A DNA stretch of 64,000 nucleotides from Vulcanimicrobiota bacterium (GCA_963795855.1 CAWCIZ010000002.1:160001-224000); one strand, 5' to 3'. Shown: positions 7,851 through 35,546, numbered from the stretch's first letter. A program made the numbers and translations. Notes: generated from the sequence alone by a model not told the origin.

Positions 7851-8289
7851 ATGCACGAAACGCTCACGGTTGGGGAACTCGCCGCGCGCAGCGGCGTCGC
7901 GATTTCGACCATCCGCTTCTATGAGGCCAAAGGCTTGATACAAAGCGTCCGCAACACCGGCAATCAGCGCCGATTTTCACGCGCCGAACTGCGCCGCGTC
8001 GCGGTCATCAAGGTCGCGCAGCGCGCCGGAATCTCGTTGGCCGAAATTCGCGAAACGCTCTGCACGCTGCCCACGAACCGGCCGATTTCCGCGGACGATT
8101 GGGCGGATTTGTCGGCAGCGCTGGAAAGCGGCACTGGATAGTCGCATACGCAGATTGACCGCGCTGCGCGATCAGCTCGGCGATTGCATCGGCTGCGGAT
8201 GTCTCTCGCTCGACAGCTGCCCGCTTCGCAACCCGATGGACTTCCTCTCCGAAGAGGGGCCCGGGCCGCGCCTGATCGCAACCGATTAA
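7851..8289 (+). CDS. soxR: Redox-sensitive transcriptional activator SoxR (one frameshift near 8120)
   Basis: Mer[25 protein letters not shown]...GNQRRF; after the shift the [2Fe-2S] motif [17 protein letters not shown]. Confidence 0.93.
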
Positions 8290-10010
8290 GCGGCGCGGTC
8301 CTCCGAGCAGAGGACCGGGAGCGTCACGGTCACGTGCGTACCGAGCCCGGCGAGCCGTTCGACCTGCACGTCGGAAGCCAACGCGGAAACCAAAAACAAG
8401 CCGCGTCCGCCCTCAGACCAAATGCTCGGCGGCAGCGCCGGTTCGTACCGGAAACCCGGTCCGCGATCGATGACGTGCAGCACCAGTTCGTCGCCGCGCC
8501 GTTCGAGCGAGACACTCAGCGGGCCGGGCGCGTGACGCACCGCGTTTCCCACGAGTTCCGCGAAAATCAGGCCGCAGTTCGCCAATTCTTCCTCGCTCGG
8601 TGCGCAAAGCGTCGTAATGTTTCGGAAATATTCCTCACGCATCGCATACGCAGCTCGCGCATCCGCCGCTTGGAACTGCCAGCGCACCTCGGGCTCGCCG
8701 AAGCGGACGACCAAGATCGCGATATCGTCGCGAGGCGCCTGATTTGCGATGGCGCGTTCGATGAACTCGGCGGCATTCGTCGCGTGCGCGACCGCGTCCG
8801 AACTGACGACGCGTTCGAGCAACTCGTCGCCGGAAATGACGTCGCGCGTGATTTCGATGAGCCCGTCGGTATACAGCACCAGCATGCTTTTATCGGGACA
8901 ATGCACGGTATGCGTTTGGAACGCCGCCTCTGGAAACGCGCCAAGCGGAGCCGACGGGTTTTCGAGCCGGCGCACCATTTGCCCATTCAAGCGCAAGAAC
9001 GGCGGCGCGTGGCCCGCAGACACGTAGCGCAGCGCGCGCGACTTCGGATCCAAGATGCCGACGAACGCGCTCGCGAGTTTTTCTCCGGCCTCGGCGAGCA
9101 GAACGCGATTGCAGAGGTCGACGATCCTTTTCGGATCGCGCGCGTCCAAGGCGGCCACTCGAATCGCCTGCCGCATCAGCACCATCAGACGCGCCGCTTC
9201 GATGCCTTTACCGGTTACGTCGCCGATCGTGATAACGATCTCGCCACGCTGGTTTTCGAAGGCATCGTACCAGTCGCCGCCCACGTCGGCTTCCGTCGAT
9301 CCGGGACGGTAGTGCGCGGTGATCTCGATGTCGCGGTGCGCGGGGAAACGCTCGGGAAGGAAAGATCGCTGCAGCGTTTCCGCGACGTACTGCTCGCGGT
9401 GAAATTGCTTGGCATTGGCGACCGCAAGCCCGGCCCTGCGTCCCACCTCCAATGCGAAAAGCAGGTCGGCTTGATCGAATTCATTGTGGTCGCCGGTCCG
9501 AACGAACGTGAGCGCACCGAAAAGATGCTTTTGCGCCACGACCGGAACGACGATCTTCGAGCGGTAGCCGAACCGCCGCATGTACTGCTCGTGTTGACGG
9601 GAAGCCGCGTGCCGGCGAATGACCTCATCGTCGATATGCGGCAAGAAAAACGGTTCCCCGGTGCGCGTGACTTGAACGACGGGGTGGACGCCGAACTCTT
9701 CCACGTACAAAATCGTAGAAACGCTGGCGAGCGCCTCCTCCTTGCTCGGGTCGCGGTGGGCAGATGCGGTAACGAAAAGTCGATCCGACCGTTCGTCGAT
9801 CAGGTCGAAAAGGCAAATGTCGGCGAACGTTTCGACGGCGAGGCGCGCGACGTTATTCAGTGTGGCTGTAACGTCGAGCGACTGGTGAAACATTTCGCCG
9901 GCACGAACGAGTAAATTGAGCCGCTCTTCGTTGCGGCGCTCAATCGCAATGTCCAACCAACGCTCCCGAGTCTCCCGAGTGTCCCTATTCCCGGATTCCG
10001 CCGGAACCAT
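8286..10010 (-). CDS. GAF + SpoIIE/PP2C phosphatase + HATPase (RsbU/RsbW-like fusion)
   Basis: [28 protein letters not shown], then [10 protein letters not shown] and DRGPGF...GRGL. Confidence 0.9.
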
Positions 10011-10022
10011 GCTCGGGCCGGC

Positions 10023-10745
10023 TCAAGCGGGCGGCAGGATTACCTCCCGGCCATTCTCGCCCGATTCGCAGAGCGCGATTGCTGCAGCCGCAATCTCGTT
10101 GAGCGTCGCGAGACGCCGCCCCGGATTGCTTTGTGCGAGCTGGAGCCGCGCCTGCTCGGCATCGAGGCCCGCGCGGCGGACGATATTCGCGACCGCCTGC
10201 TCCATCATATCGGTCTCGGTGTATCCGGGGCAGATCGCGTTTACCGTCACGCCGGTGCCCTCGACTTCCGCAGACAACGCGCGTGTGAATCCGATCACGC
10301 CGTGCTTGCTGGCGGTGTACGCGGCGATGTACGGCGCTCCATAGAGACCCGCGATGCTCGCTAGATTGACGATGCGCCCGAACTTTGCCGCGAGCAGTTC
10401 GTCGATAACGGCTCGCGAGCACAAATACGTTCCGGTGAGATTCGTTCCGACGATGCGATCCCACATCGCCTTGTCCGTGCGCTTGAGCGGCGCCCCTTCC
10501 GCGATGCCGGAGTTGTTCACGAGAATCGCGACGGGGCCGTTCGCCTGCCGGCACTGCGCGAACGCTTGATTCACCGCTGTTTCGTCAGACACGTCGCCTG
10601 CGACGCGAAAAAAATCGTCGCCGGTATCCGGCGCCGTCCGGCTCACAATGCTCACGTTCGCACCCGCGGCTTTCAAAGCGCGCGCGATCGCAAGGCCGAT
10701 GCCGCGTCCTCCGCCCGTAACGACGGCGTGTTTGCCCGCAATCAT
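10023..10745 (-). CDS. SDR oxidoreductase of the aromatic-CoA cluster
   Basis: TGGGRGIG, NNSG, YTASKHG. Confidence 0.92.
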   Translation of the reverse strand: MIAGKHAVVTGGGRGIGLAIARALKAAGANVSIVSRTAPDTGDDFFRVAGDVSDETAVNQAFAQCRQANGPVAILVNNSGIAEGAPLKRTDKAMWDRIVGTNLTGTYLCSRAVIDELLAAKFGRIVNLASIAGLYGAPYIAAYTASKHGVIGFTRALSAEVEGTGVTVNAICPGYTETDMMEQAVANIVRRAGLDAEQARLQLAQSNPGRRLATLNEIAAAAIALCESGENGREVILPPA

Positions 10746-16313: not shown

Positions 16314-17752
16314 GCGGCGCCGTAACGGCGCTGATCATCACGGGCGCGATACTGGTCGGCACGATTACCTTCGCGCTGTACAGCGTACGCCGCATCAAAA
16401 TGGATCCGCAGGAGTATATCGTCGGCGGGCGATCGTTCGGCGCGCTGTTCTTATGGATTCTGCTCGCCGGTGAAGTCTACACGAGTTTCACGTTTCTCGG
16501 CGCGGCGGGATGGGCTTATGGAAAAGGCGCACCCGCGTTCTACATCCTGGCGTACGGCACTATCGGCTACATCATCGGCTACTTCTATCTTCCCGAAGTC
16601 TGGCGAATCGGCAAGGAGCGCGGCCTTCTCACCTCGCCGGATTTTTTTCAGGTGCGGTACGGCAGCAGGCCGCTTACGACGGGCGTCGCGATACTGCAAT
16701 TTCTGCTCATCATCCCGTACGTGACCCTGCAGCTCACCGGGGTTCAAATCGTGCTTTCAATCGCCGGTTACGGTCACTACAACGCGACCATCGCCGTGGG
16801 TGTCGCATTCGCGCTAATCGTCATCTTCACGTTCACCGCGGGCCTGCACGGCGCGGCGTGGGGCAGCATCGTCAAAGACGCGCTCGTGCTCGGAGCAGTC
16901 GTCTTTGCCGGAATCGTCCTTCCGCTGCACTTCTTCGGATCGTTCGGAACGCTCTTCAACCGCGTACTCGCCGCGTCTCCGCATTGGCTGACCCTCGCGC
17001 CGGGGAGCGCTCCTATGGGAGTAAACTGGTACGTCTCGACGGTGCTGCTCACGAGCATCGGTTTCTACATGGGTCCGCATTCGATAGCGGCCGTGTACGC
17101 CGCGCGCAACGGCGATACGATTCGCCGCAACGCAATATTCCTGCCGCTCTACCAGCTCGTGATGCTGCTGGTTTTTCTTGCGGGATTCACGGCGCTCGTG
17201 GTCACGCCGGGCCTAAAGGGCGCGGCGGCGGATCAGTCGTTTCTGCTGGTCGTGCGGCAATACTACCCGGCTTGGGTACTGGGCATCGTCGGCGGCGCCG
17301 GCTGCTTGGCGGCGCTTCTCCCCGCTTCGGCGCAATTGCTCGGCGCATCGAGCGTCTTCGCGCACAACGTGCTGGGGCACGCGCGCTGGACTCGGCTATT
17401 CGTCGTCATCATCGCGGCCGGTGCGTTCGGGATGTGGCTCTTCTGGAACAAAACGCTGGTGGATTTACTGCTGCTGTACTATAACGGCGTCACGCAATTC
17501 ATGCCGGCCTTTATCTTCGGCATCTATTGGAAGCGCGCAACCGCGCTTTCGATCGGCGCGGGCATCGTCTGCGGAGAAGCCGTTGCGTTTTACCTGTGGC
17601 ATCACAACGTCAGCCTGTGGGGCGTGAATCCCGGATTCTTCGCGCTCCTGATAAACGTGGCAGTGTGCGTCGCGGTAGCGCTGGCGCAAAACCGCGACGA
17701 AACACCGCTTTCCGGCGAACGGACATCCCGTTCACCCGGTACTAATGCCTGA
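16310..17752 (+). CDS. Sodium:solute symporter (YhjB/PutP family)
   Basis: EYIVGGRSFG, GEVYTSFTFLGAAGWAY, many TM helices. Confidence 0.92.
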   Translation: MSGAVTALIITGAILVGTITFALYSVRRIKMDPQEYIVGGRSFGALFLWILLAGEVYTSFTFLGAAGWAYGKGAPAFYILAYGTIGYIIGYFYLPEVWRIGKERGLLTSPDFFQVRYGSRPLTTGVAILQFLLIIPYVTLQLTGVQIVLSIAGYGHYNATIAVGVAFALIVIFTFTAGLHGAAWGSIVKDALVLGAVVFAGIVLPLHFFGSFGTLFNRVLAASPHWLTLAPGSAPMGVNWYVSTVLLTSIGFYMGPHSIAAVYAARNGDTIRRNAIFLPLYQLVMLLVFLAGFTALVVTPGLKGAAADQSFLLVVRQYYPAWVLGIVGGAGCLAALLPASAQLLGASSVFAHNVLGHARWTRLFVVIIAAGAFGMWLFWNKTLVDLLLLYYNGVTQFMPAFIFGIYWKRATALSIGAGIVCGEAVAFYLWHHNVSLWGVNPGFFALLINVAVCVAVALAQNRDETPLSGERTSRSPGTNA

Positions 17753-18884
17753 GTTCGATGACCGTGTTGTTGTTGTCGTCGTTGAAGTAGAGTTTCGCCG
17801 TTGCCGGCGTCGTGCCGGTAGCGACCATGCCGAAGATGGAACCCGCGGCACCTGCGTCGACGTTGCGCACGAAAACGACTTTGCCGGAGGGCGTAATCTC
17901 GACCATTAGATTTTGGCCGTTCGGGTCGAGCGTATTGCCTACGGCAATGTTGCCGCCGGGAAGGATCGCCGAGCTTATAGGTCCGTTGAGCGGCGCACCC
18001 GCATAAATCACGTGCGCGGACGATGCTTGCTTGCCGGTAAAGGTCATGCCGTGCACCGCAATGCCGCCGGCAACGACCTTTGAAATGTCGTCTATCGCAT
18101 ACAGCGCGTTGTTCGTTCCGTCGACGACGTACAAGCGATCGCCGGCGGGCTGATAATTCAATCCGGACGGCCCTAGGATGCTGCCCGGAACGCCGTGATT
18201 GACCGGGAACCCTGTGGCGATGGTTGCGAATTCGAATCGCGGCCCTGGAAACACGTAGACTCGCACGAGACTTCCGTCGCCCGCGTTGCTGACGTAGAAT
18301 GCCGGAACGCTGATGGAATTGACCGGCGGGACGAAGGCTTGCCCGAACGGATGGTGCCACGTGAATTGGCCGAGCGTCGTAAGCAAAGCGCCGTTTGAAC
18401 TGAAGATGGGATTGTCGTTGGCGGAAAACGCGGCCAGCCAGATCGCGCCGTTCGGCGATGCGGCGAGTGCGTCGCATCCGTTCAGCGTAGAGTTGGTCGC
18501 GATGTCGACCGGTTTCGAACCCGGTACGGGATGCAAAGCCAGAACGGACGTGCCCGTTCCTTGTACGTTTTCCTTGTCATTGAAATCGCAGACGATCAAA
18601 TCGCCCGCCGATATCTTGCCCGAACTGATCTTCGCGACGTCGAGTCCGTACGGATTGACGTTGCGGCTGAGGGGATCGACCGCGGAGCCGATGGACTGCT
18701 CGTGCACGAGCATTGCGAGCACGGAACTGGTTCCGGAAGCCGCAAGCGCTTCGGTGTTTCGAGTCTGGAGGCTCTGGGGTGCCGTCCCGGTTTGCGGCAT
18801 CGATCCGGACGAAGAGGAGCATGCCGCGAGTGCCGTCAGCGCCGCCGCTGCGGCTGCTGCGGAAAGGAGTCGCTGGTATACCAT
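17742..18884 (-). CDS. Secreted lipoprotein, probable beta-propeller
   Basis: GGGAGG RBS, signal peptide ending LAAC, NPYGL/GPSGL blade-like motifs. Confidence 0.75.
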   Translation of the reverse strand: MVYQRLLSAAAAAAALTALAACSSSSGSMPQTGTAPQSLQTRNTEALAASGTSSVLAMLVHEQSIGSAVDPLSRNVNPYGLDVAKISSGKISAGDLIVCDFNDKENVQGTGTSVLALHPVPGSKPVDIATNSTLNGCDALAASPNGAIWLAAFSANDNPIFSSNGALLTTLGQFTWHHPFGQAFVPPVNSISVPAFYVSNAGDGSLVRVYVFPGPRFEFATIATGFPVNHGVPGSILGPSGLNYQPAGDRLYVVDGTNNALYAIDDISKVVAGGIAVHGMTFTGKQASSAHVIYAGAPLNGPISSAILPGGNIAVGNTLDPNGQNLMVEITPSGKVVFVRNVDAGAAGSIFGMVATGTTPATAKLYFNDDNNNTVIELRH

Positions 18885-18918
18885 GAAGCCCTCCCATTGA
18901 AGATTTGGGGGATCAGTC

Positions 18919-18950
18919 ACGGTAGCGCGCCTCTATGAAGAATCTCTGAA
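18919..18950 (-). promoter_or_regulatory. Putative OmpR/PhoB-type direct-repeat box and -10
   Basis: TTCAGAGA and TTCATAGA repeated at 11-bp period, 7 nt upstream of TACCGT. Confidence 0.5.
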
Positions 18951-19005: not shown

Positions 19006-19323
19006 CTAGCGGTAGGACGGACGCGACTGGAAGCAGTCGCGGCAGTACACCGGCTTGTCGCCGCGCGGCTGGAACGGCACCTCGGCGACGCCGCCGCACT
19101 GGCTGCACGTGGCCTGGTACATTTCGCGTCGCTGGCCGCCGCCGCCGCCCATTCCGGACCCGCCGCCCGAGCTGTTGCGCATCTGCTTGCGCGCTTGTCG
19201 GCAATCGGGGCAGCGATTCGGTTTGTTCTGAAAACCTTTGCTTGCGTAGAACTGCTGTTCCCCGGCCGTGAACGCGAATTGACGTCCGCAATCCACACAG
19301 TTCAGCATTTCATCAACGTACAC
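19006..19323 (-). CDS. Zinc-ribbon + CxxC-x17-CxxC domain protein (putative nucleic-acid binding)
   Basis: CVDC...FTAGEQQFY.SKGF.NKPNRCPDC, Gly-rich linker, CSQC...VPFQP...PVYCRDC; AAGGAG RBS, GTG start. Confidence 0.92.
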   Translation of the reverse strand: MYVDEMLNCVDCGRQFAFTAGEQQFYASKGFQNKPNRCPDCRQARKQMRNSSGGGSGMGGGGGQRREMYQATCSQCGGVAEVPFQPRGDKPVYCRDCFQSRPSYR

Positions 19324-23733: not shown

Positions 23734-25536
23734 TCAGTGAGCTGCGGCGTAGCGGTAGCGCCGCAGCCACGCGCAGAAATCCTGTTCGACGAGCGGACTC
23801 GATATCTCGAAGCCTTGCAGCGCGTCCACGCCGCTTGCCACCAGCCACTGGTGTTCGGCAAACGTTTCGACTGCTTCTCCGATCACCGTGCACGAGAGTT
23901 GATGCGCCTGATCGATGAGCAGCCCGAGCCAATCGCTGCCTTCTTCCCGACCGGAGGCCACCTTCACGAAATCGGGCCGCATCTCGGTGAGCGCACGCAG
24001 CGGCAGCCGTCCGCATCCGAATTGCGAGAGACCGACGCGCACGCCGCGCGCGCGGCATGCGGAAACGAACTGCAGATACCGGTACGGCTCCGCCGCGACT
24101 TGCTCTTCGGAGAATTCCAGAGCGATGTGCGTCCCGTCTTGCGGCAGCGCATCGATGAGCGCCTCGTTCGGCTCCGACACGTTGATGTGGTACGTCACGT
24201 CGCCCGCATGCCGCAGTTCCGCGGCTTTCTCTACCACGGCATTCACGATTGCCGATTCGAGGCGGACGAGGATGCCCTGTTCGCGTGCCGCGCTGAGAAA
24301 CTGCGCGGGTGAGCGCATGCCTTGCGGGTGAAGCCAGCGAGGCAGCACTTCCGCCGCTATCGGCCGTCCGCCGCGCGCCGAGACGATTGGCTGGTAACAC
24401 AAGACGAACTGTGAGTTGAACGTCGACGAGTCGATCGTGAACGGACGTTCGACGGTTATCGCGCTCGACGCATTGTACAGCGCAAACGCCGCAGAGCCCT
24501 CGCGTTTCGCCCGGTACATCGCTTGATCGGCGTGGCTGAGAAGGTCGTTCGGCGACGCGCCGTCGCGCGGATAGACGGCGATGCCGACGCTTGCGGACGC
24601 GTTGAGCGTCACGCCTTCAGGCAGGATCACCGGCTCCTCCAATGCGCCGAGGATACGCCGCGCGATGATCGCCAATTCATCGTCATCGCGAAACGACGCA
24701 ACGATGACGCAGAACTCGTCGCCACCGAAGCGGCCGCACATTTCGTGCTTACGCAGGACTGATTGGATGCGGGAGGCGATCTCGCGGAGCGCCGCGTCTC
24801 CCGCCGCATGTCCGTGTTCGTCGTTGAGCTTTTTGAAATTGTTCAAATCGACGTAGAGCACTGCGACGCGCGAATCTTCGCGCTGCGCGGCTGAAATCGC
24901 CAAAGCGAGTTGCTCGAGAACGGCCGCGCGGTTTGGAATGCCGGTCAGCAGATCCGTATCGGCGCGTTGAGCGATGCGGCGCTGATTCTCCAGCGCTTCC
25001 AGCAGCCGAGAAACGAGCGCCGCAAGAAAATTGAGGTACTGAATTTCGTCCTCGCTAATGAATTCGTCGCGAGCGTGCTTCCAGCCAAGTGCGAGAACGC
25101 ACTGTTTGCCTCCGGCGTTGAACGGCCAGTAGAGCACCGAACGCAGACCGAGCGCCGACGCCGCCTGACCGCCGGCGAGATCCTCGCTTACCGTGTCGAA
25201 GATCATGAGCGGCCTGTCGCGCAGCAGCCCGGGCGCGCCGATGCCGTTCTGAATGTGCTCCGCGCCTTCGCCGACGGCGCATAAGCGTACGTACCCGGGA
25301 TCGCCGGTGACTTGTTCGCCGATTTCGCCGTAGTCGAAATTCAACGCAGCAGTTGAGTCGAGTAAAATGCGGCGCGCTTGTTCGGCCGGAGATTCGCCGA
25401 TGACGCCCATCTCGACCACTGCGTGCAATCGAACCATGTGCTGATGCAGCCGGTCGAAACCGGAGAACGACGTTTCGTTGCGTTCGTCTGCGCCATTCGC
25501 TGCGTCGGCCATGTCGTAGAATCGATGCTCCCGCAC
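23734..25536 (-). CDS. GAF-like + GGDEF diguanylate cyclase + degenerate EAL (start may be 25512)
   Basis: TDLLTGIPNR, DLNNFK.LND.HGH, GGDEF; EAL part has EVL but SQFG in place of DDFG. Confidence 0.9.
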   Translation of the reverse strand: MREHRFYDMADAANGADERNETSFSGFDRLHQHMVRLHAVVEMGVIGESPAEQARRILLDSTAALNFDYGEIGEQVTGDPGYVRLCAVGEGAEHIQNGIGAPGLLRDRPLMIFDTVSEDLAGGQAASALGLRSVLYWPFNAGGKQCVLALGWKHARDEFISEDEIQYLNFLAALVSRLLEALENQRRIAQRADTDLLTGIPNRAAVLEQLALAISAAQREDSRVAVLYVDLNNFKKLNDEHGHAAGDAALREIASRIQSVLRKHEMCGRFGGDEFCVIVASFRDDDELAIIARRILGALEEPVILPEGVTLNASASVGIAVYPRDGASPNDLLSHADQAMYRAKREGSAAFALYNASSAITVERPFTIDSSTFNSQFVLCYQPIVSARGGRPIAAEVLPRWLHPQGMRSPAQFLSAAREQGILVRLESAIVNAVVEKAAELRHAGDVTYHINVSEPNEALIDALPQDGTHIALEFSEEQVAAEPYRYLQFVSACRARGVRVGLSQFGCGRLPLRALTEMRPDFVKVASGREEGSDWLGLLIDQAHQLSCTVIGEAVETFAEHQWLVASGVDALQGFEISSPLVEQDFCAWLRRYRYAAAH

Positions 25537-25667: not shown

Positions 25668-28600
25668 TTACGGGCCTGACGGCGCTCCCGGCGCGTTCGG
25701 CGGTCTCCGGCGCGTCGGCATGAGCAAATACAGTCCGAGCGACGGCGAGTAATTGAGGCTCGGCGGAGCCGCGCCGTCCCAACCCAGTTTGGTCAAGTCG
25801 GTCTTCGCTGCGGCGGCTACGCGTCCGCAGTTGATAATCGCCGGAACCGCACCGATATCGGCGGCGTCGAGCGAATACCACGTGCCCGCCGTCGAGGCAT
25901 GCGGCGCAATCGTCCAGCCGGGCGCGGCTGCGCCGCGGGAGAAATGCGCTTGAAGCTGCGCGAGCATCTGCTGCGCCACGCCGTGCATGTCTGCGGTGCA
26001 GCTTTGCGACGCGCGCAGGGCAAACGGCGTCTTCGGCGCGGTGCTCGGAAGTTTGTAGACACGGAAACTTTCCGCACCGGCCTGCGGCGGACGGCGTACG
26101 AAGTACAACCCCACGGCCGGCATGTACGTCACGGTCGGTCTAAAGAACATTCCGCCCGTGCCCGGCTGCACGAAAAGATTGCGCTGCTGCGCCGTTTGCT
26201 CGTCGGTAACGTGGAATGTCGTGCAGCCGAACAGCGAACGCATTTGCGTCGCTTGCGTGACCACAATACTGAGCGCATACGTCGATTTCAAGCCGTGATA
26301 CGTTACGGCAACACCCGGAACGTTTGCCGGCTGCATCGTGTCGGGATAGCCCGCAGCGGTTTTTGCGGCCTCGATCTGCGCGGTGTAAGCCTTCAGTCCC
26401 GCAAGAACGGTTTGAGCGGTTTTTTGCGCGTCGGCCGTGCACATGGGCGTGAGGTTGAGGGCCAACGGATCCGCCGGCGGCATTTCCGGCAGCGGCGAAC
26501 CGAATTGACGGAAGCCGCCGCGGCCGCGTCCGGGTTCCCCCGGCTGTCCGCGGGTTGACGAGGACTGTGCGAGCTGTGCATTTTGCCCGAAGCGCGCCGT
26601 GTAGGTAAGTGAAATCTGACGCGGCGCGTTCGGCCGCGCGATCGTCGGGATCGTCAGTCCGTTCGCTGCCGAATAGGGAACCGCGTTTTCGGAACTCGCG
26701 AAGACGCCGCCGTACGCGTTGAAAATATTGCTTGCCGCGAACGTCAGCGTTCCGTGCTGCAGTTGGGTGCTCACGCCGGCATCCACCGTCGTATACGCCG
26801 GCAGGTTCTGCGCATTGTTCGAACCGGTATAACTCGCATCCGCAAGCCACTCCACCGCCGAATGCGGCGCCCGGTAGTCGAGCGTTATGCCGGCGCGATG
26901 CAGCGGCACGTTGGGAAGTTGGTTGCCGGAGATGGTAATCGCATACGGATTCGCGAACCGTGGATCCGCACTGATCGCTTTGGCGACCTGGACGTCGTAG
27001 TACGGCTCGAGCACGAGCGCGCCCAGCGTGAAGTACCCGTTCAGATGCGCGCCCTCGTATACGCGCCGCACGTTGCCGATCGGCGTCGAGAAATAAACGT
27101 TCTGCGCGCCGAATGCGGTCGAGGGCGGCACGCCGCACGTCGAGTCGAAATAGCTTTGCGCGGTGCCGAAATACGCAGGCGGGAAGATGCCCGTGGCCAG
27201 CAGCGCCGTTCCGTTGACTTGCACCGGCAGGACGACGTCGTTCTGAACTTGTCGATACAGCGAGCCGCTGATCAGTCCCCAGTTGCCGCGGTGCGTATAG
27301 CTCAGCCGGGCGGAGTTCGAGGAACTCGCGCCGGGTTCGTCGCCCGGAGCGTTTCCGTACGCAATGTCCCCGTTGCAATCGATGCGCAGCTCGCCCGGAT
27401 CGGTCAGAATGCCCGCGCGTCCGGCGTGCGGAGCGACGCCGCCGATATTATATGAGAACGCGTACGCGTCGCTGGTTGTCGGTTGCCAGTTCGCGCCGAC
27501 GCCGGCGAGCAACGACGAAGGCGCATTGCTCGCGCGGCTGATACCGATGGAGTCGTTCAGACGAAGTTTCGTGTTCGAGCGAATCGAGTCGTTCACCGAG
27601 ATCGCCGCGTAGCTCGCCGTCTGCCCCGGGAACGTGAACGGCTGCGCCTGGGCCACGAGCGGCGTGAAAGTGGACGTGCTGTTCGTGCCGTAAGCGCTGA
27701 CCGAGATCGTGTGGCGCTGCTGCGCGGGCAGCGTTGCGTCGATCGAAATTCCGTTCGTGCTCGTGGCGGTTTGCGTGCCGGTCGGCGCCGCTTCGCCGTC
27801 GATGTACCGGTCCAGCAAATCGCGCGTCGACTTCGAACGCGATCCGAAGACGGCCGCTTGCACCTGCGTATCGCCGATCAACGCATTGTCCGTGAGCGAA
27901 TACAGATCGAAGGCCGTGTCGTACGAGTTGTTCGGCCCGTACCCGCACGGGACGGCTCCCGTATCCTGCGTGCACACCAATTCGGCGCCGTTCACCGAGT
28001 GCATGTAGCTGCCGGTCAGCGTCTGTGACTGCGAGAGCTGGTAGCGCATTTTCACGAGGGAACCGATCTGCTGCCGGTCGCCCTCGTGCGTGTAATCCAA
28101 TCCGCTCGCATCGAGAAACTGCATGCCGTCGAGCAGGCTCGGGCTCATGCGATAGGTGTGCATGACGGCGAGACCGAGTTTACCGATCGATCCCGTTTCC
28201 GAAGCGGAGTAGTCGTTTTTGCCGTTGCTGCCGGCGGACAGGGAGAACGCGCTCTGCCAGCTGAGCGTCGGGTCGAGCGTGCGAAAATTCACCCCTCCCG
28301 CCAGTCCGCCGAGCGTTGGGCCTAAGGAGACGTTCGCTCCGCTGAACAGATCCGAGTTCATCATACGCAAATCGCCCGCCATGCCGGGCGCGTTGAGCGG
28401 AATGCCGTCGAGCGTCATCTGCGTCTGACTCGGATCCTGCCCTTCAAGCGAGACGGTCTGCGTCGCGTCGCTATCGGTGCTCGAGGTCGTGACGGTGACG
28501 CCCGAAAGTTTGCCGAGAGCGTCGGCAAGCGTGTCGGAAAGTTTGCGCTGCGCGCTGTCGTTCGAAATCGCACTGGTCGAAACGGTCGCGCTCGATTTCA

Positions 28601-28967
28601 CCACTTCCGACGCGATCGTCCGCAGTGGGCCGCCTTGCGACTGCGCAAGCTCCACGCTGACCGTTACCGCGCGTCCGTCGATGACTTCGAAGTTCTGCGA
28701 GGTGACGGGGCTGAAGCCGCGCGCAAAAATGCGCGCGCGATAGATGCCGCTCGGAACGTCGGTGAAACGTACTTTGCCGTTGTCGCCTGTAAATTCGCTT
28801 GCGATGACGGGGCCGTCGAGCATGACGCGCGCCAACACGACCGGAATTTTTTTCGAAGCATCCTGAACGACGATGTCGATCTCGCCGGTGTCGGATTGAG
28901 CGAACGCCGGTATGGCGCCGCCGAACAACGCAAGCGACAACAGCAGGCAGAACAAGCGACGGATCAT
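25668..28967 (-). CDS. TonB-dependent receptor-like outer-membrane protein with about 306-aa C-terminal extension
   Basis: GAGGA RBS, signal peptide, carboxypeptidase-regulatory-like N-domain, plug (DALGKLSGV, LDGIPLN, LAGGVNF), barrel end (LPAYTTVDAGV, ASNIFN, PRQISLTYTARF). Confidence 0.85.
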   Translation of the reverse strand: MIRRLFCLLLSLALFGGAIPAFAQSDTGEIDIVVQDASKKIPVVLARVMLDGPVIASEFTGDNGKVRFTDVPSGIYRARIFARGFSPVTSQNFEVIDGRAVTVSVELAQSQGGPLRTIASEVVKSSATVSTSAISNDSAQRKLSDTLADALGKLSGVTVTTSSTDSDATQTVSLEGQDPSQTQMTLDGIPLNAPGMAGDLRMMNSDLFSGANVSLGPTLGGLAGGVNFRTLDPTLSWQSAFSLSAGSNGKNDYSASETGSIGKLGLAVMHTYRMSPSLLDGMQFLDASGLDYTHEGDRQQIGSLVKMRYQLSQSQTLTGSYMHSVNGAELVCTQDTGAVPCGYGPNNSYDTAFDLYSLTDNALIGDTQVQAAVFGSRSKSTRDLLDRYIDGEAAPTGTQTATSTNGISIDATLPAQQRHTISVSAYGTNSTSTFTPLVAQAQPFTFPGQTASYAAISVNDSIRSNTKLRLNDSIGISRASNAPSSLLAGVGANWQPTTSDAYAFSYNIGGVAPHAGRAGILTDPGELRIDCNGDIAYGNAPGDEPGASSSNSARLSYTHRGNWGLISGSLYRQVQNDVVLPVQVNGTALLATGIFPPAYFGTAQSYFDSTCGVPPSTAFGAQNVYFSTPIGNVRRVYEGAHLNGYFTLGALVLEPYYDVQVAKAISADPRFANPYAITISGNQLPNVPLHRAGITLDYRAPHSAVEWLADASYTGSNNAQNLPAYTTVDAGVSTQLQHGTLTFAASNIFNAYGGVFASSENAVPYSAANGLTIPTIARPNAPRQISLTYTARFGQNAQLAQSSSTRGQPGEPGRGRGGFRQFGSPLPEMPPADPLALNLTPMCTADAQKTAQTVLAGLKAYTAQIEAAKTAAGYPDTMQPANVPGVAVTYHGLKSTYALSIVVTQATQMRSLFGCTTFHVTDEQTAQQRNLFVQPGTGGMFFRPTVTYMPAVGLYFVRRPPQAGAESFRVYKLPSTAPKTPFALRASQSCTADMHGVAQQMLAQLQAHFSRGAAAPGWTIAPHASTAGTWYSLDAADIGAVPAIINCGRVAAAAKTDLTKLGWDGAAPPSLNYSPSLGLYLLMPTRRRPPNAPGAPSGP

Positions 28968-28992
28968 CGTTCCTCTATGTAGCACGCACGGG

Positions 28993-29020
28993 TTGGGAAT
29001 GTGCTGAGAAGCTCCCGGAA
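28993..29020 (-). promoter_or_regulatory. Putative MprA/OmpR-type direct repeats upstream of the receptor
   Basis: Minus strand TTCCGGG..TTCTCAG..TTCCCAA at 10-11 bp period. Confidence 0.55.
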
Positions 29021-29038: not shown

Positions 29039-30466
29039 TTAAAGTTTGATTGAAACGGTCGTGCCGCGGCCCGGTGTGCTATCGATCGCGATCGATCCGC
29101 CCGCGCGGTCCACCGCGCGCTTCGCGATGGCAAGGCCTAAACCGGTGCCGGGAATCTCGCCGCGCACGTCTCCCCGGTAAAAGCGTTCGAAGGCGTGCAG
29201 CCGCTCGGATTCGCTCATGCCCGGCCCCTCGTCGCGCACGCTCAGTACGGTCGTCCCGTTTTGCCGGTACGCATGCAGGTGCAAAGGCGCACCGGGCGCG
29301 TACTTCAGCGCGTTTTCGACGATGTTCCAGAGCGCCTCGCCGATTTCACCGCGGTCGGCATAGATTTCTTTTACGCCGTCGACGCTGTATTCGATCGGGC
29401 GATCGTCGTCCAACCGTTTGGCCGCCTCGCACTGATCCCGCAGCAGCTCCGACACGTCGATGGGAACCGGCTGCGGCTCCGTTTCCGCCTCCATGCGCGC
29501 GAGCCGCATCAGACGATCGATCAGGCCGCGCATATGTTCCTTTTCCATCGCCATCGTTCCGAGGATCTGCCGCGCCACTTTCGGCTCTTCGATCGCGCCG
29601 CGCCGTAGGACGTCGATGTAGCCGGCAATCACCGTGAGCGGCGTACGCAGTTCGTGTCCGGCGTCGGCTACGAATTGCCGCATGCGGGCCTCGGTGGCGC
29701 GCCGCTCGTCCATCGCGGCGGCGACGCTCGCCGCAGCATCGTTGTACGCTTGCGTGAGCGTTGCGATTTCATCTCCCGCGGCGGTAATGAAGCGCCGCTG
29801 CGTGTAGTCGCCGTCGGCCAACGCTTGCAGGGAACCGGTGACCTCGTTCATCGGCGCGAGCGCTTCACGCGCGACGACGCGTCCCACAAACCACGACACC
29901 CCCAGCGCGAAGATGGCGATACCGAGAATGATCCACCAGTACGGAACCAGGTTGGAGAAAATGATCCAGCTCGACGCGTTGAACGTGACGTATCCGCCTT
30001 CGACCGCGATGATGCGCCACCAGTCGTGCGGTGCGGGCGGAAGCGGAACGGCGCGCGGGCGCGGAGGCGGCGCCGCTTCTATCGGCTCGCCGGCGCGCGG
30101 CGCCGGCGCGAGCTTGACTTTTCCGCGCAGCACGCGGTCGAGGATGTCGGGATGCACGCTCGCGTCGCCGCCGAGAAACTTGCCCTTCGCGTCGTAAACC
30201 GCCACGCGCAACCCGATGCCGCTGAGATCGCGCGCGATGCGCGGCGCGGCTTGCGAGAGCGTTTGGCCGTCGGTTTGATAGCGCGCCGCCAGGAAGCGCG
30301 CTTCTTCGTGTTTGGCGATGATGATATCGTTGCTGAAGCCGGCCAATTCGTAGATGAGCGCAACGGAAGATGCGACGACCACGAGCAGCACGGTGACGCC
30401 CAGCAGCACGGTGTACAGCGTTGCGAGACGCGATGCGAGCGAGCGCTTCGGAAGCAGCGTACTCAT
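29039..30466 (-). CDS. Sensor histidine kinase (HAMP, HisKA, HATPase)
   Basis: FVADAGHELRTPL, NIVENALKY, DEGPG, GTGLGL; two TM segments. Confidence 0.95.
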   Translation of the reverse strand: MSTLLPKRSLASRLATLYTVLLGVTVLLVVVASSVALIYELAGFSNDIIIAKHEEARFLAARYQTDGQTLSQAAPRIARDLSGIGLRVAVYDAKGKFLGGDASVHPDILDRVLRGKVKLAPAPRAGEPIEAAPPPRPRAVPLPPAPHDWWRIIAVEGGYVTFNASSWIIFSNLVPYWWIILGIAIFALGVSWFVGRVVAREALAPMNEVTGSLQALADGDYTQRRFITAAGDEIATLTQAYNDAAASVAAAMDERRATEARMRQFVADAGHELRTPLTVIAGYIDVLRRGAIEEPKVARQILGTMAMEKEHMRGLIDRLMRLARMEAETEPQPVPIDVSELLRDQCEAAKRLDDDRPIEYSVDGVKEIYADRGEIGEALWNIVENALKYAPGAPLHLHAYRQNGTTVLSVRDEGPGMSESERLHAFERFYRGDVRGEIPGTGLGLAIAKRAVDRAGGSIAIDSTPGRGTTVSIKL

Positions 30467-31137
30467 TGAGCCAGCCCGTACCCGACGCCGCGAACCGTTC
30501 GAATGAAAGACGTCTGATCCGTGCGATCGATCTTCGCGCGCAAATACGAAATGTACGTCTCGACGATGTTCGGGCCGCCCTCGAAGTCGTGTCCCCAAAC
30601 CAATTCGAGCAAATGATCCTTGCTGAAAACGCGGCGGGGCTCGCGCATGAACACCTCCAGCAAATCGAACTCCCGCTGCGTGAAGTCCAAGCGATCCGAT
30701 CCGCGCCACGCTTCGCGCGTCGTCGGATTCATCGCCACGTCGTGCCAGCGCAAGACGTCTTCTTCAATGAGCTGCGGGCGGCGCAGCTTGGCTTGCAGGC
30801 GAGCGATGAGCTCTTCGAAGACGAAGGGCTTGACGAGGTAGTCGTCTGCGCCGGCTCCAAGGCTCGCGACTTTGTCCGCGGTTTCGCCCTTCGCGGTCAG
30901 CATGAGAATCGGCGCCTGCGAAATCTGCCGCAGACGCGGCAGCAGCGTGATGCCGTCGATCTTCGGCATCATGACGTCGAGCACGATGACCTCGGGCTCC
31001 CAATCGCGCACCAGTTCGAGCGCGGCCTGCCCGTCGGCTGCGGTTCGCACCAAAAAGCCCTCGCGGGTAAGACCGAGTTCGAGCATCTCGCGGACAAAGC
31101 GGTCGTCGTCGACGACCGCAACGCGGGCCGGCTGCAT
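30463..31137 (-). CDS. OmpR-family response regulator (MprA-like)
   Basis: VVDDD, LDVMMP, GADDYLVKPF, NIVETYISYLR, TVRGVGY. Confidence 0.95.
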   Translation of the reverse strand: MQPARVAVVDDDRFVREMLELGLTREGFLVRTAADGQAALELVRDWEPEVIVLDVMMPKIDGITLLPRLRQISQAPILMLTAKGETADKVASLGAGADDYLVKPFVFEELIARLQAKLRRPQLIEEDVLRWHDVAMNPTTREAWRGSDRLDFTQREFDLLEVFMREPRRVFSKDHLLELVWGHDFEGGPNIVETYISYLRAKIDRTDQTSFIRTVRGVGYGLAQ

Positions 31138-31197
31138 GGAGATCATTCTACGGTGGATCCTCGCCTCAAACCCTTGGAGGCGGCTGGGGCGCGTTCC

Positions 31198-31659
31198 TTA
31201 CGCCGCCCAGCGGCGGCAGCGCTGGCCGGCCACGAGCGAGGCCGCCCGGATACTCTCCAAGGGGTGGCAGACCACCGCGATGCCTTGGGCGCCGAGGACG
31301 GCGCAAGTTTGGCTATCGGGAAGCCAGTGCGCGAAGAGGTGCACTTCGGCTGCGTTCGCCCGCTGTGCGAGCGTCGCAAGGACGTCCGCCAGGCTGCACG
31401 TGCGGCGCTCCCGCAGCTTTCCGCTGACTTCGGACCGGAATCGCGCGGCGTTCCAACCCTGGGCTACGACGAGCAGCCGTTGCATCGTCTCGGGACTCGT
31501 GCCTTCGAAATCGACCGCAGCAACTTGTACCCGTTCCGCGAGCGCGCGGTCTACGTCCGCGTGGAGCGTGGCCGGGGTGATGGAGCCCGACTCGCCCGTT
31601 TCGAGAATCGATCCCGCGCCGATGATGTAGTCCATGGAAAAAACATAGGGCGCGAACAT
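31198..31659 (-). CDS. Hypothetical protein
   Basis: Clean ORF in the same directon, protein-like composition. Confidence 0.6.
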   Translation of the reverse strand: MFAPYVFSMDYIIGAGSILETGESGSITPATLHADVDRALAERVQVAAVDFEGTSPETMQRLLVVAQGWNAARFRSEVSGKLRERRTCSLADVLATLAQRANAAEVHLFAHWLPDSQTCAVLGAQGIAVVCHPLESIRAASLVAGQRCRRWAA

Positions 31660-31714: not shown

Positions 31715-32701
31715 TTAGGCGCTGGAAGCGCGGTGTTCCGCGGGCTGCTTCTGCTTGCGCGTCCCGCTGAAAAGGCTCAACATCGAATCCACCACGACCG
31801 GATCCCACTGGGTTCCGCGTCCGTCCCGAAGAATTTCCAGCGCGCGGCGGGGCGCGATTGCCTTGCGGTACGGACGGTCGCTGATCATTGCGTGGAACGC
31901 GTCGGCCACGGCGACGACTCGCGCTTCGAACGGAATGTTGTCACCCGCGAGCGCGTCGGGATAACCGGCGCCGTCCCAGCGCTCGTGATGCGCGCGAACG
32001 ACGACGGCGCAACGCGCCAGCGTGGGAATCTGGTCGAGAATCCGTTCGCCGGCCGCGCAATGTTCCCGCATGACGTCCCACTCCGCGGAACTCAGCGCGC
32101 CCGGTTTGAAGAGGATGCTGTCCGGCGTCGAGATTTTGCCGATGTCGTGCAGCAGCGCGCACTGCTCGATGAAATCCGTCAGTTCTTTCGAGAGGCCCAT
32201 CGCCGCGCAGAGCCGGCGCGCCCATTCACCGGTGGCCTTGGAGTGACAGCAAGTCTGCGAATCGCGCTCGCCGAGCATCGCGAGCAGTGCCTCCGTCGTT
32301 CCGGAGTGCGCCGACCGCGGTTCGCAGCCGTCACCCCCCAAGGCGGAGAGCGCCGATTGGATTTCGGCCTTCAGCACCTCCAGAAAGGCGAGAAGCCTGC
32401 CGTGATCGATCGGAAATCCGCTGACTTCGCTCGCGATGACGTGCGCGGCAGCGTTTGCCACTTCCATCGTGCGCGAAGCGCCGAGGCGGCGGCCTTCACG
32501 TACGGCCCACGTGGCCAGTCCGACCGGTTTGGAAAGCTGAATCGACAAGCAGAGCCTGTCGAGGATGAGTTCTATCGATGAATCAAGGGCGGGGTCCCCG
32601 AAAAGCGCCGGATCCTGAACGTGCTCGACGACCTGAGGGGTCAGAGCGCGAAGATTACCCGAGATCGCCGATGCCGCCGCCGGCAACGTATGCACGTCCA
32701 T
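31715..32701 (-). CDS. HD-GYP c-di-GMP phosphodiesterase with helical N-terminal domain
   Basis: LLHDIGKI, HHERWDGAGYP, ADAFHAMISDRPYR. Confidence 0.92.
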   Translation of the reverse strand: MDVHTLPAAASAISGNLRALTPQVVEHVQDPALFGDPALDSSIELILDRLCLSIQLSKPVGLATWAVREGRRLGASRTMEVANAAAHVIASEVSGFPIDHGRLLAFLEVLKAEIQSALSALGGDGCEPRSAHSGTTEALLAMLGERDSQTCCHSKATGEWARRLCAAMGLSKELTDFIEQCALLHDIGKISTPDSILFKPGALSSAEWDVMREHCAAGERILDQIPTLARCAVVVRAHHERWDGAGYPDALAGDNIPFEARVVAVADAFHAMISDRPYRKAIAPRRALEILRDGRGTQWDPVVVDSMLSLFSGTRKQKQPAEHRASSA

Positions 32702-32736
32702 GTTTTTTAGCAGCCAGTGCGGGAGAGAAGCGCGGC

Positions 32737-32814
32737 TTACTGAATCGGCGTCGGCGGCGAAACGCAGGCGACGATGACGGCGACGGAAGCGGCAACGACG
32801 AATGCAGTCAGCAT
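32737..32814 (-). CDS. Small hydrophobic peptide, 25 aa (MLTAFVVAASVAVIVACVSPPTPIQ); not in ORF track
   Basis: ATG...TAA ORF, GAGGA RBS 10 nt upstream, TACTTT -10 just above, signal-peptide-like core with lipobox-like IVAC. Confidence 0.6.
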   Translation of the reverse strand: MLTAFVVAASVAVIVACVSPPTPIQ

Positions 32815-32835
32815 GAAAAAAAGTTCCTCGTAGTA

Positions 32836-32900
32836 AAAGTACGGTGGTTACCACGAGCATAGGCCGAATGGGCCAGCCGGTCTCTACCCATCTTTAGTTA
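32836..32900 (-). promoter_or_regulatory. Putative promoter of peptide/HD-GYP unit with NarL/LuxR-type 7-2-7 site
   Basis: -10 TACTTT (32836-32841); palindrome GTGGT-T-ACCAC (32844-32854); TACCCAT-CT-TTAGTTA (32885-32900). Confidence 0.5.
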
Positions 32901-32918
32901 TGCCGTTTCGCTGGCTCG

Positions 32919-35546
32919 CTATCCCAGCAACCCCTGCTTACGCGCAAGGGTAAGCGCCTCATTGCGACCGCTGCACCCGAGCTTTCGGATGACGTTCTTG
33001 ATGTGCACCTGGACGGTGTAGACACTGCGTCCCGTCTCGAGCGCAATGTCCTTGGGGCCCCGTCCTTCCGCGAGGGCGCGCAGCACGGACAGCTCCGACT
33101 TGGTCAGCATCGTAGTGACGACTTCCTCGGCGACTACCCGCCGTTCAACGGCGCCGCCGAGCAGTTTGGCGATGCCGCCATATCCCATCGTCTGTACTAA
33201 TTGAAGCCGCTCGAACACTTCGTCGCGAAGCGCCGGGTTTTTCACCGCGCGCAGCAGCATTGTGACGGCTTCTCGCAATGCCTCGCACACCGGTGCCTCC
33301 CCCGTCACGCGCTGCAAAATGCGCGACGCATTGGTGACGCGTCCCGCCAGCGCCTCGGTGGCCGCGCACAGCAGCCGCGCCAGATCCATGTGACGGCGCG
33401 CGTGCAGGAACGTCGCCGATTCTTCGCACGTGAGGTCGAGCGCTTGCGCGATCAGCGCGAGGCCGCGTTCGCGTTGGCCGTCGACCACGAGCAGCAGTCC
33501 GCAAGCCGCCGACATATACGCCTGGTTCCAAGCGTAGACGATGCGATCGAGGACGCTGAACAGCATGCGGTGCGCGTCGTCGAAACGTCCGTCCCAGGCC
33601 GACATCAACGCGCGCGTGGGAATGACGAGCGCCATTCTCGTGACGTCGGACGTGGCCGTTTCCGCGAATTGACGTTCGAGCGCCAAGAGCCGTTCCGCGT
33701 TGCCGCGCGTCGACTCGACCGTGATCAGCTGCAAGACCGCGGTTTGCAGCGCGAGACGATCGCCCGCTTTGGTCGCGGCGGTCATCGCCTGCTGCGCGTA
33801 CCACGCCGATCGCGTCATGTCGTCTTCGTAAAAGAGCACCAAGTTCGCCAGTGCTCCATATGCGCGCGCCGCCGCACCGTACATCAGGCTGTCCGAAGCG
33901 AGCGTCACCGAACGCGTCAAATACTGCTGAGCGATCGCAGCCGGCATTCCGAGCTGCATCGCCGCTGCGCCGAGGCGGTGCCAAATCTTCACACGCTCGC
34001 CGACCTCGTCGGTTTCACCGGCGAACGCTTCCGCCTCTTCGATGGCGGACTTCGCCGCCGCCTCGCGATTGGCGTTCGCGTATGCGACCGCGAGCAGGCT
34101 GACGATGTCGGCGCGCAGATTTCCCGGCAACTCTTCGCCGAGCAGCGGTTCGAGCAGCGTGACGACGTCGCGGCCCAAATTGATCGAGATCAGCGCGAGC
34201 CGCACGGCCAGCGAGGCGCGCAACTCCGCGTCTTCGCAACGCGCGAGCGCTCTGTTGAGCAGCGATTCGGCGCGATCGTAGCGGCCGGCGTGCGCTTCGC
34301 CCAGGCCGCGCATGCCGAGCACGATCGGATGCGTCGCGCGCAAATCCTGCGGCAGCACGTCGAGCGCCGCATGCACCGCGTCCGCATGCCCCTGTTCCAT
34401 TAGCAGGAACCCCGACGTTTCCAAGATCCGCAGCACGTCGCGGCTTGAAGAGGCTTGCGCGTAGACGTTCAGCGCGTAGGCGAGCTGACCGGCCTTTTCC
34501 AGCGCCGCGCCGGCCGCCCGAGCCGTGCGTTCCGCCGCGAATTCACCCTCGAGTTCGACTTGGTGCTGCAGAAAGTCGCGGAACAAGTCGTGGCAGCGAT
34601 AAATGCCCGGGCGTTCGGGATAGATGAAGGCGACGCGATCGCGCAGCGCTTCGATCAGCGCCTTTGCTTTGGCGTAGCCGGCGACCCGCAGCACTTCCAC
34701 GTCGATCTCCGGCAAATAGCCGATGAAATGCAGCAGATCGCGCTCCTCGTCGTCGAGCGATTGATACACCTGCTCCGCCAGGTAGCGGTACACCATTTCG
34801 CGCGTGTTCGCGGCGATATTTCGCAGGTCGATCGATCGCGTCGAGGTTCGCAGCGCAAAGCTGAGCGCAGTCGGCCAGCCTTCCGTCATCGACAGAATTT
34901 CCGCGAGTTCGTCGTCGTGCACGCCGACGCGGGACGCCTTCGCGGCTTCGCGCGCTTCTTCTATCGTGAAACGCAGATCCTGTTCGTCGATGTTCAGGTC
35001 CATCTCGCCGTACGCCAGCCACGAGCCGACCGGCAGATCGAGCGACGAACGCGACGCGATGATCCAGTTGGACCGGCCTTTGGTGCGATCGATCAGCGAG
35101 ACGAGAAATTTGGAAATTTCCGGGTCGTTTTCGGCGATGTGCAGATCGTCGATCGCGATGACGCCCGTGAACGTTTTGATGTGCGCGTGCATCCACATCG
35201 CGAGATCCAAGCCCGGCGTTTTCGACGAGCGGCTCTTCTCGTATGCTCCGGACACAGTTTTGCGCGCCGCGGGCGCGATGTCGGTCACCGCTTCGGCAAA
35301 GCCGCGAACGAATCCGAGCAGCGTGCCGTTCTCGGCGCGCACGTCGTAGCGCGCGTGCGCCACGCCGCGCAGTGTCTCCAAATAATGACGCAGCGCGACC
35401 GATTTGCCGTAGCCGGCGGGAGCAACTATCAAAACAATCCGCTGCGTTGCAGCGGACGCGATGCGATCCACGATTCTCGGGCGCAGAACCGGAGTGAACG
35501 CTCCACCGGTCTCGATTCTGCCGTCCGCGGCTACCGGGCGGATCAT
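32919..35546 (-). CDS. MalT-like STAND ATPase / helical-repeat / LuxR-HTH transcriptional regulator
   Basis: APAGYGKS P-loop, IDDLH, TEGWP, YLAEQV, long Ala/Leu helical region, LTKSE..VL..LAEG...TV..HIKNV.RKLG. Confidence 0.9.
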   Translation of the reverse strand: MIRPVAADGRIETGGAFTPVLRPRIVDRIASAATQRIVLIVAPAGYGKSVALRHYLETLRGVAHARYDVRAENGTLLGFVRGFAEAVTDIAPAARKTVSGAYEKSRSSKTPGLDLAMWMHAHIKTFTGVIAIDDLHIAENDPEISKFLVSLIDRTKGRSNWIIASRSSLDLPVGSWLAYGEMDLNIDEQDLRFTIEEAREAAKASRVGVHDDELAEILSMTEGWPTALSFALRTSTRSIDLRNIAANTREMVYRYLAEQVYQSLDDEERDLLHFIGYLPEIDVEVLRVAGYAKAKALIEALRDRVAFIYPERPGIYRCHDLFRDFLQHQVELEGEFAAERTARAAGAALEKAGQLAYALNVYAQASSSRDVLRILETSGFLLMEQGHADAVHAALDVLPQDLRATHPIVLGMRGLGEAHAGRYDRAESLLNRALARCEDAELRASLAVRLALISINLGRDVVTLLEPLLGEELPGNLRADIVSLLAVAYANANREAAAKSAIEEAEAFAGETDEVGERVKIWHRLGAAAMQLGMPAAIAQQYLTRSVTLASDSLMYGAAARAYGALANLVLFYEDDMTRSAWYAQQAMTAATKAGDRLALQTAVLQLITVESTRGNAERLLALERQFAETATSDVTRMALVIPTRALMSAWDGRFDDAHRMLFSVLDRIVYAWNQAYMSAACGLLLVVDGQRERGLALIAQALDLTCEESATFLHARRHMDLARLLCAATEALAGRVTNASRILQRVTGEAPVCEALREAVTMLLRAVKNPALRDEVFERLQLVQTMGYGGIAKLLGGAVERRVVAEEVVTTMLTKSELSVLRALAEGRGPKDIALETGRSVYTVQVHIKNVIRKLGCSGRNEALTLARKQGLLG

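Follow-up and report, generated by a model that had tools for sequence, protein, structure and literature searches.

The question raised by this locus is why a TonB-dependent transporter (TBDT) should continue well past the end of its barrel, and what the additional part does. The locus lies in a 64,000-nucleotide stretch of DNA from a Vulcanimicrobiota bacterium (GCA_963795855.1 CAWCIZ010000002.1:160001-224000), all of which was analysed and is called here the window; G000 is the genome to which it belongs. A preliminary description had noted a barrel with a usual end, followed in frame by a long tail made of two related units, and had proposed that the tail is a periplasmic domain serving ligand capture, signalling to the neighbouring kinase or contact with the energiser. 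The reading frame, strand 22 of an AlphaFold2 model and a search with the tail all bear out the 306 in-frame residues after PRQISLTYTARF, which correspond to 25668-26588 including the stop codon. In six other TBDT-like ORFs of G000, the C-terminus is found at the last strand or within about 12 residues of it.

The frame is open on the minus strand for 1,105 codons counted from a GTG (window 25668-28985), and the start codon is likely the ATG at 28967 because homologues begin there and a promoter motif stands just upstream. Domain searches and modelling show the architecture of an Oar-type TBDT, with a signal peptide, a CarboxypepD_reg extension, a plug and a 22-strand barrel (Table 1). The full-length AlphaFold2 model, built from 112 homologues (pLDDT 82.7, pTM 0.67), places the first of the 22 barrel strands at 238-246 and the last at 784-794. 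With this model Foldseek returned 236 matches at E <= 0.001, and all the matches listed are TBDTs, including Cir (the best, E 4.5e-27), PirA, PfeA and BtuB. The Pfam barrel family PF00593 was matched at 27.7 bits against a cut-off of 27, and the barrel loops hold four conserved Cys (C332, C341, C531 and C611). Ahead of the plug, in a stretch with pLDDT <50 (112-127), L115 (111/112 rows) and I118 (112/112) form an L-x-x-I segment which we take to resemble TonB boxes. Elsewhere in G000 there are nine matches to TonB_C, two to ExbB/MotA and one to Omp85. As for the usual barrel end, the predicted barrel stops at F793, but this terminal Phe is not conserved in the family and is found in 42/140 rows only. 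The Tyr four residues before it is kept in 116/138 rows and the Gly after it in 136/140. Variation of the beta-signal is treated in PMC10629564.

Table 1. Features of the transporter locus, with positions counted from the first nucleotide of the window
Feature	Position	Strand	Basis or remark
Whole gene, 1,099-aa Oar-type TBDT with C-terminal tail	25668..28967	-	ATG start; in-frame GTG at 28985
Sec-type signal peptide, residues about 1-24	28896..28967	-	Read from sequence; A23-Q24 almost invariant across 112 rows
CarboxypepD_reg N-terminal extension PF13620, residues 33-107	28647..28871	-	Pfam E 3.8e-8
Putative TonB-box-like segment, residues about 115-125	28593..28625	-	Disordered stretch ahead of plug
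Plug domain PF07715, residues 124-217	28317..28598	-	Pfam E 1e-10, above cut-off
22-strand beta-barrel, residues 238-793; last strand about 784-793	26589..28256	-	Pfam, alignment, AlphaFold2, Foldseek
Gly/Pro/Arg-rich linker, partly disordered, residues 794-825	26493..26588	-	Lowest conservation of all segments (mean identity 44%)
Tail unit 1, residues 826-959; C843, C915	26091..26492	-	Repeat alignment, tail model, deep alignment
Tail unit 2, residues 973-1081; C990, C1047	25725..26051	-	Repeat alignment, tail model, deep alignment
-10-like hexamer	28976..28981	-	11 nt after repeat, about 9 nt before ATG
Conserved 7-4-7 direct repeat, 11-bp period, at -35 position	28993..29010	-	Putative response-regulator site
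HAMP-HisKA-HATPase sensor kinase, two membrane segments, ~134-aa periplasmic domain	29039..30466	-	Pfam, locus comparison
OmpR/PhoB-family response regulator	30463..31146	-	4 bp overlap with kinase start
153-aa ORF upstream of regulator	31198-31659	-	No Pfam or NCBIfam match

The two units of the tail, of about 110-135 amino acids, are related to each other: their alignment scores 100, and 2,000 shuffles gave 30.7 +/- 5.3 with a maximum of 61 (z = 13). The repeat was missed by a BLASTP self-comparison of the protein; a tblastn search with one unit retrieves the other (26% identity, E 5e-5). In a deep alignment of 148 rows, selected from the hits of two tail searches, three of the tail Cys are kept in 148/148 rows and the first in 99%, so that the two Cys of each related unit, already seen in the preliminary description, are near-invariant. 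The two tail His are only 80-84% conserved, and the positions that never vary hold structural residues (Cys, Gly, Pro and aromatics). Within the full-length model the tail is well predicted, with 10-residue blocks of 69-96 pLDDT; residues 800-818 of the linker are disordered (pLDDT <50), and there is no confident packing of the tail on the barrel (pTM 0.67). Modelled alone from 88 rows, the tail reached a pLDDT of 88.8 and a pTM of 0.80. Each unit of that model runs through a helix, a beta-hairpin, a helix, a strand, a helix and a beta-hairpin, and the two units appear rigidly packed. Computation shows the tail to consist of two conserved, mutually homologous alpha/beta domains that fold autonomously and belong to an unnamed family.

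The side on which the chain leaves strand 22 was read from the DSSP string and turn pattern of the model. Short turns follow the even strands and, with the established topology of TBDTs, the chain would therefore leave on the periplasmic side. From this barrel topology and from the exported stand-alone copies described below, we infer that the tail is periplasmic, as had been proposed. Its location on these two grounds and the invariance of the Cys suggest that each Cys pair forms a disulfide.

No Pfam family matched the tail at E 0.1, and therefore no OmpA, LysM, SPOR, SLH or AMIN domain was detected; no NCBIfam family matched either. Against PDB sequences, a profile of the unit gave 0 matches and a profile of the tail a best E of 0.1, and the domain was rightly called unrecognised. 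The modelling and fold search that had been suggested gave a confidently folded tail for which Foldseek found 0 matches at E <= 0.001, whether in PDB or in BFVD (best E 0.42). OmpA, usher and binding-protein folds are absent among the structural matches listed for the tail by Foldseek and VIA-align. A tandem DUF26 among the Foldseek rows was rejected (TM about 0.1, rmsd 17). The ESM Atlas yielded no usable hit, which speaks neither for absence nor for novelty. Among 48,161 chains compared with the tail by VIA-align, two reached Z >= 5 and none Z >= 8. A type IV pilin ranks first (81 residues aligned at Z 5.6 and rmsd 3.9); most of the top rows are pilins. The pilin heads 4d40, 5v23, 5g2f and 4noa (Z 4.7-5.6) share with unit 1 a long helix on an antiparallel sheet, but the likeness is below the tool's meaningful level (rmsd 3.6-4.7), and unit 1 lacks the hydrophobic pilin N-terminus and has extra inserted helices. 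Since Z is <8, since helices packed on sheets in this way may simply be common, and since the likeness concerns unit 1, with unit 2 barely covered on its own, we describe the modelled domain as weakly pilin-head-like and not as a proven new fold.

Homologues keep the fusion. A search with the tail region, in which 8,000 candidates were scored, found 228 matching proteins of 604-1,924 amino acids; among the 120 of these that are listed, nearly all have about 1,060-1,170 amino acids and carry the plug and extension domains. Named carriers are Baltobacteraceae, Cybelea, Rubrimentiphilum and other Eremiobacterota, and one partial protein bears a truncated Nitrosotal- label, possibly through a binning error. 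An exhaustive tail search gave 176 hits at E <= 0.001; among the 150 listed, the transporter part is complete in 82, the barrel is partial in 27, and a barrel match is lacking in 41. By a crude test, 40 of these 41 have no N-terminal hydrophobic stretch, and they look like fragments. The fusion is still present at tail identities as low as 24%. Sixty-six of 70 genome loci have Eremiobacterota or Vulcanimicrobiota titles, and four are titled 'bacterium' only. Across the phylum, the tail profile matched 215/301 genomes, with 214/243 in the three families of the class and 0/57 in other families, and a unit-only profile matched 107/121 class genomes; the tallies include genomes flagged as unpublished (G036, G235, G239, G246 and G248), on which alone no single claim rests. 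Both matches of the unit profile in G000 are inside the transporter gene. The transporter with its tail is thus found in most genomes of one Eremiobacterota class, usually as a single copy. Compared with the window protein, the units average 59% and 61% identity and the barrel 64%, so that conservation of the tail comes close to that of the barrel, and the tail is kept under selection.

An artefact or recent read-through, in which a lost stop codon fuses two genes, was one of the alternatives named at the outset, the other being a well-characterised family; no such family was found, and the conserved fusion refutes the lost stop. Stand-alone units and tail-less barrels do both occur, as read-through would have it, but the 228 tail matches, the deep hits with a full transporter part (at least 82) or a partial barrel (at least 27) and the persistence of the fusion at low identity leave next to no probability for it.

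Variants of this arrangement were found in 20 loci chosen among weak or multi-copy hits. Eleven of them encode single-unit transporters in which the unit is split by a Gly/Pro-rich insertion, and nine encode divergent two-unit paralogues. The one-unit tails (L107-L111 and L118-L121) have long mid-unit Gly/Pro insertions and a conserved Gly-rich motif of about ten residues at the C-terminus. At L111 a BamA-like Omp85 gene with three POTRA matches (8144-10405, +) begins immediately after the one-unit transporter, and at L112 a thioredoxin-like (Redoxin/AhpC-TSA) gene (9169-9765, +), which may relate to the Cys pairs, directly follows a two-unit paralogue.

Four of the nine divergent loci also contain stand-alone single-unit ORFs, five in total (two in L102, one each in L103, L104 and L114), which come from three genomes of one genus. 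They match a profile built without them at E 2.5e-14 to 6.5e-6. Each precedes a tail-bearing paralogue on the same strand, three of them immediately and two at a distance of 1.3-1.8 kb. Their N-termini are signal-peptide-like, one of them lipoprotein-like, and both Cys are kept; the unit-1 His is replaced in two of the five. Pfam gave nothing at the curated cut-off and no pilin match for any of them, and a prepilin-type (class III) N-terminus was absent by eye. A wider search for stand-alone copies gave 4 hits among 3,704 candidates, and the tail profile gave 49 among proteins of 97-807 amino acids, many of which are named partial or lie on short contigs. In G000 and most genomes, a stand-alone unit was not detected. 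Because of the signal-peptide-like N-termini, the kept Cys and the adjacency to transporters, the unit is, as far as sequence can tell, an exported module tied to these transporters.

A set of 30 loci comprised 26 with units (one from the unpublished G235), three without a tail and one cut by a contig end. The three tail-less siblings stop 6-20 residues past the last strand, lack a unit gene in their vicinity, and have intact ORFs, two of which are 63% identical to each other. The existence of such siblings makes the tail an accessory part. In a FastTree tree of 76 barrel rows with a midpoint root, the one-unit group and the tail-less L130 cluster together (support 100), with two-unit lineages around them, and under that root this placement suggests that units were lost rather than gained. 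A tail-less sister transporter of the same loop-motif family is also seen in G000 (C2:557056-559397, +), in three frameshifted pieces that may reflect an assembly error or a pseudogene.

The adjacent two-component genes, whose conservation the preliminary description had proposed to check, are kept as well: the kinase lies directly upstream of the transporter in 59/65 loci with enough flank, and the regulator is found in 61/70. Other neighbours are also syntenic (the 153-aa ORF in 54/70 loci, a glycosylase-like gene in 51, a MalT-like gene in 48), and the kinase linkage is therefore in part plain gene-order conservation. To the same conserved block belong, at window 31715-35546 (-), an HD-GYP protein (29/70 loci) and the MalT-like AAA/TPR/LuxR regulator (48/70). 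A GAF-GGDEF-EAL gene right after the transporter (window 23734-25536, -) occurs in only 5/70 loci and is therefore a recent neighbour. Further along are a 392-aa lipoprotein-like, secreted beta-rich protein (window 17742-18920, -) and a small protein in which CxxC motifs recur with a Gly-rich spacer, by eye resembling a zinc ribbon (window 19006-19323, -). No binding-protein or ABC gene was recognised in the ORF list around the transporter, in which eight neighbours were domain-scanned.

Between kinase and transporter, the direct repeat with its -10 box was found in 41/71 upstream regions, against a mean of 0.34 and a maximum of 2 in 200 mononucleotide shuffles; the pattern was designed after the sequences had been seen, and close kin inflate the count. 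OmpR/PhoB activator sites usually take the form of such a repeat, with an 11-bp period and located at -35, and therefore regulation by the neighbouring OmpR-type regulator is likely. Gene order and promoter together make it likely that this upstream regulator activates the transporter gene at the direct repeat. The repeat may also resemble the mycobacterial MprA box, for which a literature search gave no confirmation. In most loci the -10 box stands about 9-14 nt ahead of the start codon, and a leaderless or very short-leader mRNA is suggested. A matrix scan of the genome ranked the window site, itself part of the training set, first, and no coherent regulon was found behind the 11 matrix sites inspected. 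Nor was the repeat found before one-unit, divergent or tail-less copies. Given the conserved promoter, transcription can explain the linkage of kinase and transporter, and protein contact is not required.

Our preferred reading, held tentatively at a probability of about 0.42, sees the protein as an importer under inducible control, with a tail that serves in the periplasm as an accessory module for cargo capture or hand-off. The signal, either the imported compound or an envelope cue, would be detected in the periplasm by the kinase, in the manner of PfeS with PfeA, and the OmpR-type regulator would then activate the transporter gene at the direct repeat. TonB would open the plug and cargo would enter the periplasm, where the tethered units would act at the exit in capture or hand-off, a role parallel to that of the separate periplasmic binding protein of other systems; free single-unit proteins would do likewise in trans. 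An accessory transport module fits because selection maintains the tail although some paralogues do without it, others have a single unit, no one regulator always accompanies it, and a free exported protein encoded beside the transporter can consist of the unit alone. Nine loci without a two-component pair, some of them with other regulators alongside, retain the tail, and together with the tail-less siblings this again fits an accessory role in transport. Against the importer reading count the origin of the stand-alone genes in one genus, the synteny, and the promoter repeat missing before the variants. For the tail, the analysis revealed neither a ligand nor a binding pocket, and a binding-protein fold was absent from the matches listed. 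The import direction is also putative, and by analogy the export of a protein by Oar itself (outlined in PMC6434023) counts against it.

Of the other roles considered, the signalling that had been proposed did not stand up well. A ligand would move the tail, and the tail would contact the periplasmic domain of the kinase, as a C-terminal, two-component counterpart of FecA/FpvA. Besides the kinase directly upstream in most loci, this agrees with the related regulator-kinase pair that flanks 6/11 one-unit loci in other gene orders, with regulators that match the window regulator best in 6/6, and with the modelled dimensions, since a flexible linker of about 30 residues and a 270-residue module could reach into the periplasm. 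On the other hand, the kinases of the one-unit loci match another paralogue in G000 best and the window kinase second, and the nine divergent two-unit loci have the pair in 0/9, within the 10-18 kb fetched. Two of the paralogues have other regulatory genes directly upstream, a BlaI gene with a BlaR1-type M56 gene (L113:4287-6028, +) and an ECF sigma gene with an unassigned ORF (L116:4607-6090, +). The paralogous kinase is encoded at G000:C1:278296-280492 (+) in a same-clade regulator-kinase pair, after which come two small secreted-looking ORFs. Across 43 loci, the kinase sensor shows no particular co-divergence with the tail: its partial distance correlation is 0.17 with the tail and 0.54 with the barrel, for pairs that are non-independent and a barrel that is longer. 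Prediction of a complex between tail and sensor domain scored 0.01 with an uncertain partner fold and counts neither way. As the promoter also accounts for the linkage, direct contact is unlikely, and less likely than capture or hand-off. FecA, FpvA and FoxA-type transducers have an extra periplasmic domain (PMC11658791). This domain, STN, is at the N-terminus and contacts an anti-sigma factor; unlike these transducers, the window protein has no STN match, and its neighbours are a kinase and a regulator. In the P. aeruginosa systems PfeR-PfeS-PfeA and PirR-PirS-PirA, a two-component pair controls the TBDT and the imported ligand is sensed in the periplasm, according to PMC8001512. PfeA and PirA, which rank high among the structural matches to the window barrel at an identity of only 12-14%, have no C-terminal domain, unlike the tailed window protein, for which nothing points to a siderophore.

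Folded periplasmic C-terminal domains after a barrel, as in the window protein, are known from fimbrial ushers such as FimD and PapC (CTD1/CTD2), which have a 24-strand barrel with a mid-barrel plug, and from OmpA with its 8-strand barrel. The barrels differ from ours and the tail has no sequence match to these domains (PF00691 included). If the tail were structural, anchoring the transporter in peptidoglycan or a different layer of the envelope, or clustering transporters, it would act as the C-terminal domain of OmpA does in wall tethering (outlined in PMC13067283). The analogous position, the near-core and mostly single-copy gene in the class, the apparently rigid packing of the modelled units and the lipoprotein-like stand-alone copy would suit such a role. 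It becomes slightly less credible than direct signalling when one considers that no wall-binding domain was detected in the tail and that a tether is less expected with free non-lipidated copies or a regulator-dependent promoter. Still less probable is that the tail docks on TonB, the plug or the N-terminal extension, selecting among TonB proteins or gating the plug. Nine TonB_C matches do make the choice of partner a real problem, and topology would put the tail on the same face as the TonB-box-like segment; that conserved segment is already there, however, tail-less siblings have intact ORFs, stand-alone copies are hard to account for on this basis, and the full-length model lacks confident tail-barrel packing. 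Less probable again is a platform for export or assembly, with small unit proteins, or some other protein, passing out through the barrel and the tail units serving as usher-like C-terminal periplasmic domains. The usher layout NTD-barrel-CTD1-CTD2 is paralleled by the order of transporter and tail, stand-alone unit genes are directly upstream of some paralogues, and pilin heads are the best structural neighbours of unit 1. An analogy may be Oar, which shares the N-terminal architecture and on which protein secretion depends, according to PMC6434023. The pilin likeness may, however, be a common arrangement, with a best Foldseek E far above the threshold; the stand-alone proteins have no prepilin-type N-terminus and were not detected in most genomes; and 22 strands with an N-terminal plug are unlike ushers. 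At the same low odds, one could speculate on a TonB-powered channel whose tethered, pilin-head-like domains would receive neighbour-encoded single-unit proteins for surface display or polymerisation. If true, a TBDT-based channel for export or assembly would be an undescribed secretion route.

Whatever the role of the tail, its nearest relatives among known transporters are the Oar-subclass TBDTs, of which Myxococcus xanthus Oar has a PF13620 extension, a plug, a TonB box and a 22-strand barrel (outlined in PMC6434023). The window protein shares with them the PF13620 extension, the plug and the 22-strand barrel, in a SusC-like N-terminal architecture, and its family differs in one or two extra domains after the barrel. 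The same source reports a survey of 34,893 TBDTs, sorted into five architectures by N-terminal domains only, and its available text mentions no C-terminal domain. Our literature search, with most subscription journals outside its coverage, found no paper on this family or on TBDTs with post-barrel domains, and the tail family, real and conserved, is apparently undescribed in print.

TBDTs have been classified by the parts that precede the plug and assumed to end at the barrel. The present family means that the exit side can carry a module of its own, and that TBDT barrels with an internal last strand fold. The variants with two units, one unit, no unit and free units form a natural comparison series, and the candidate promoter with its regulator offers a handle on the inducing signal. 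For the Eremiobacterota, a common and barely cultured soil group, the tailed TBDT is a lineage marker.
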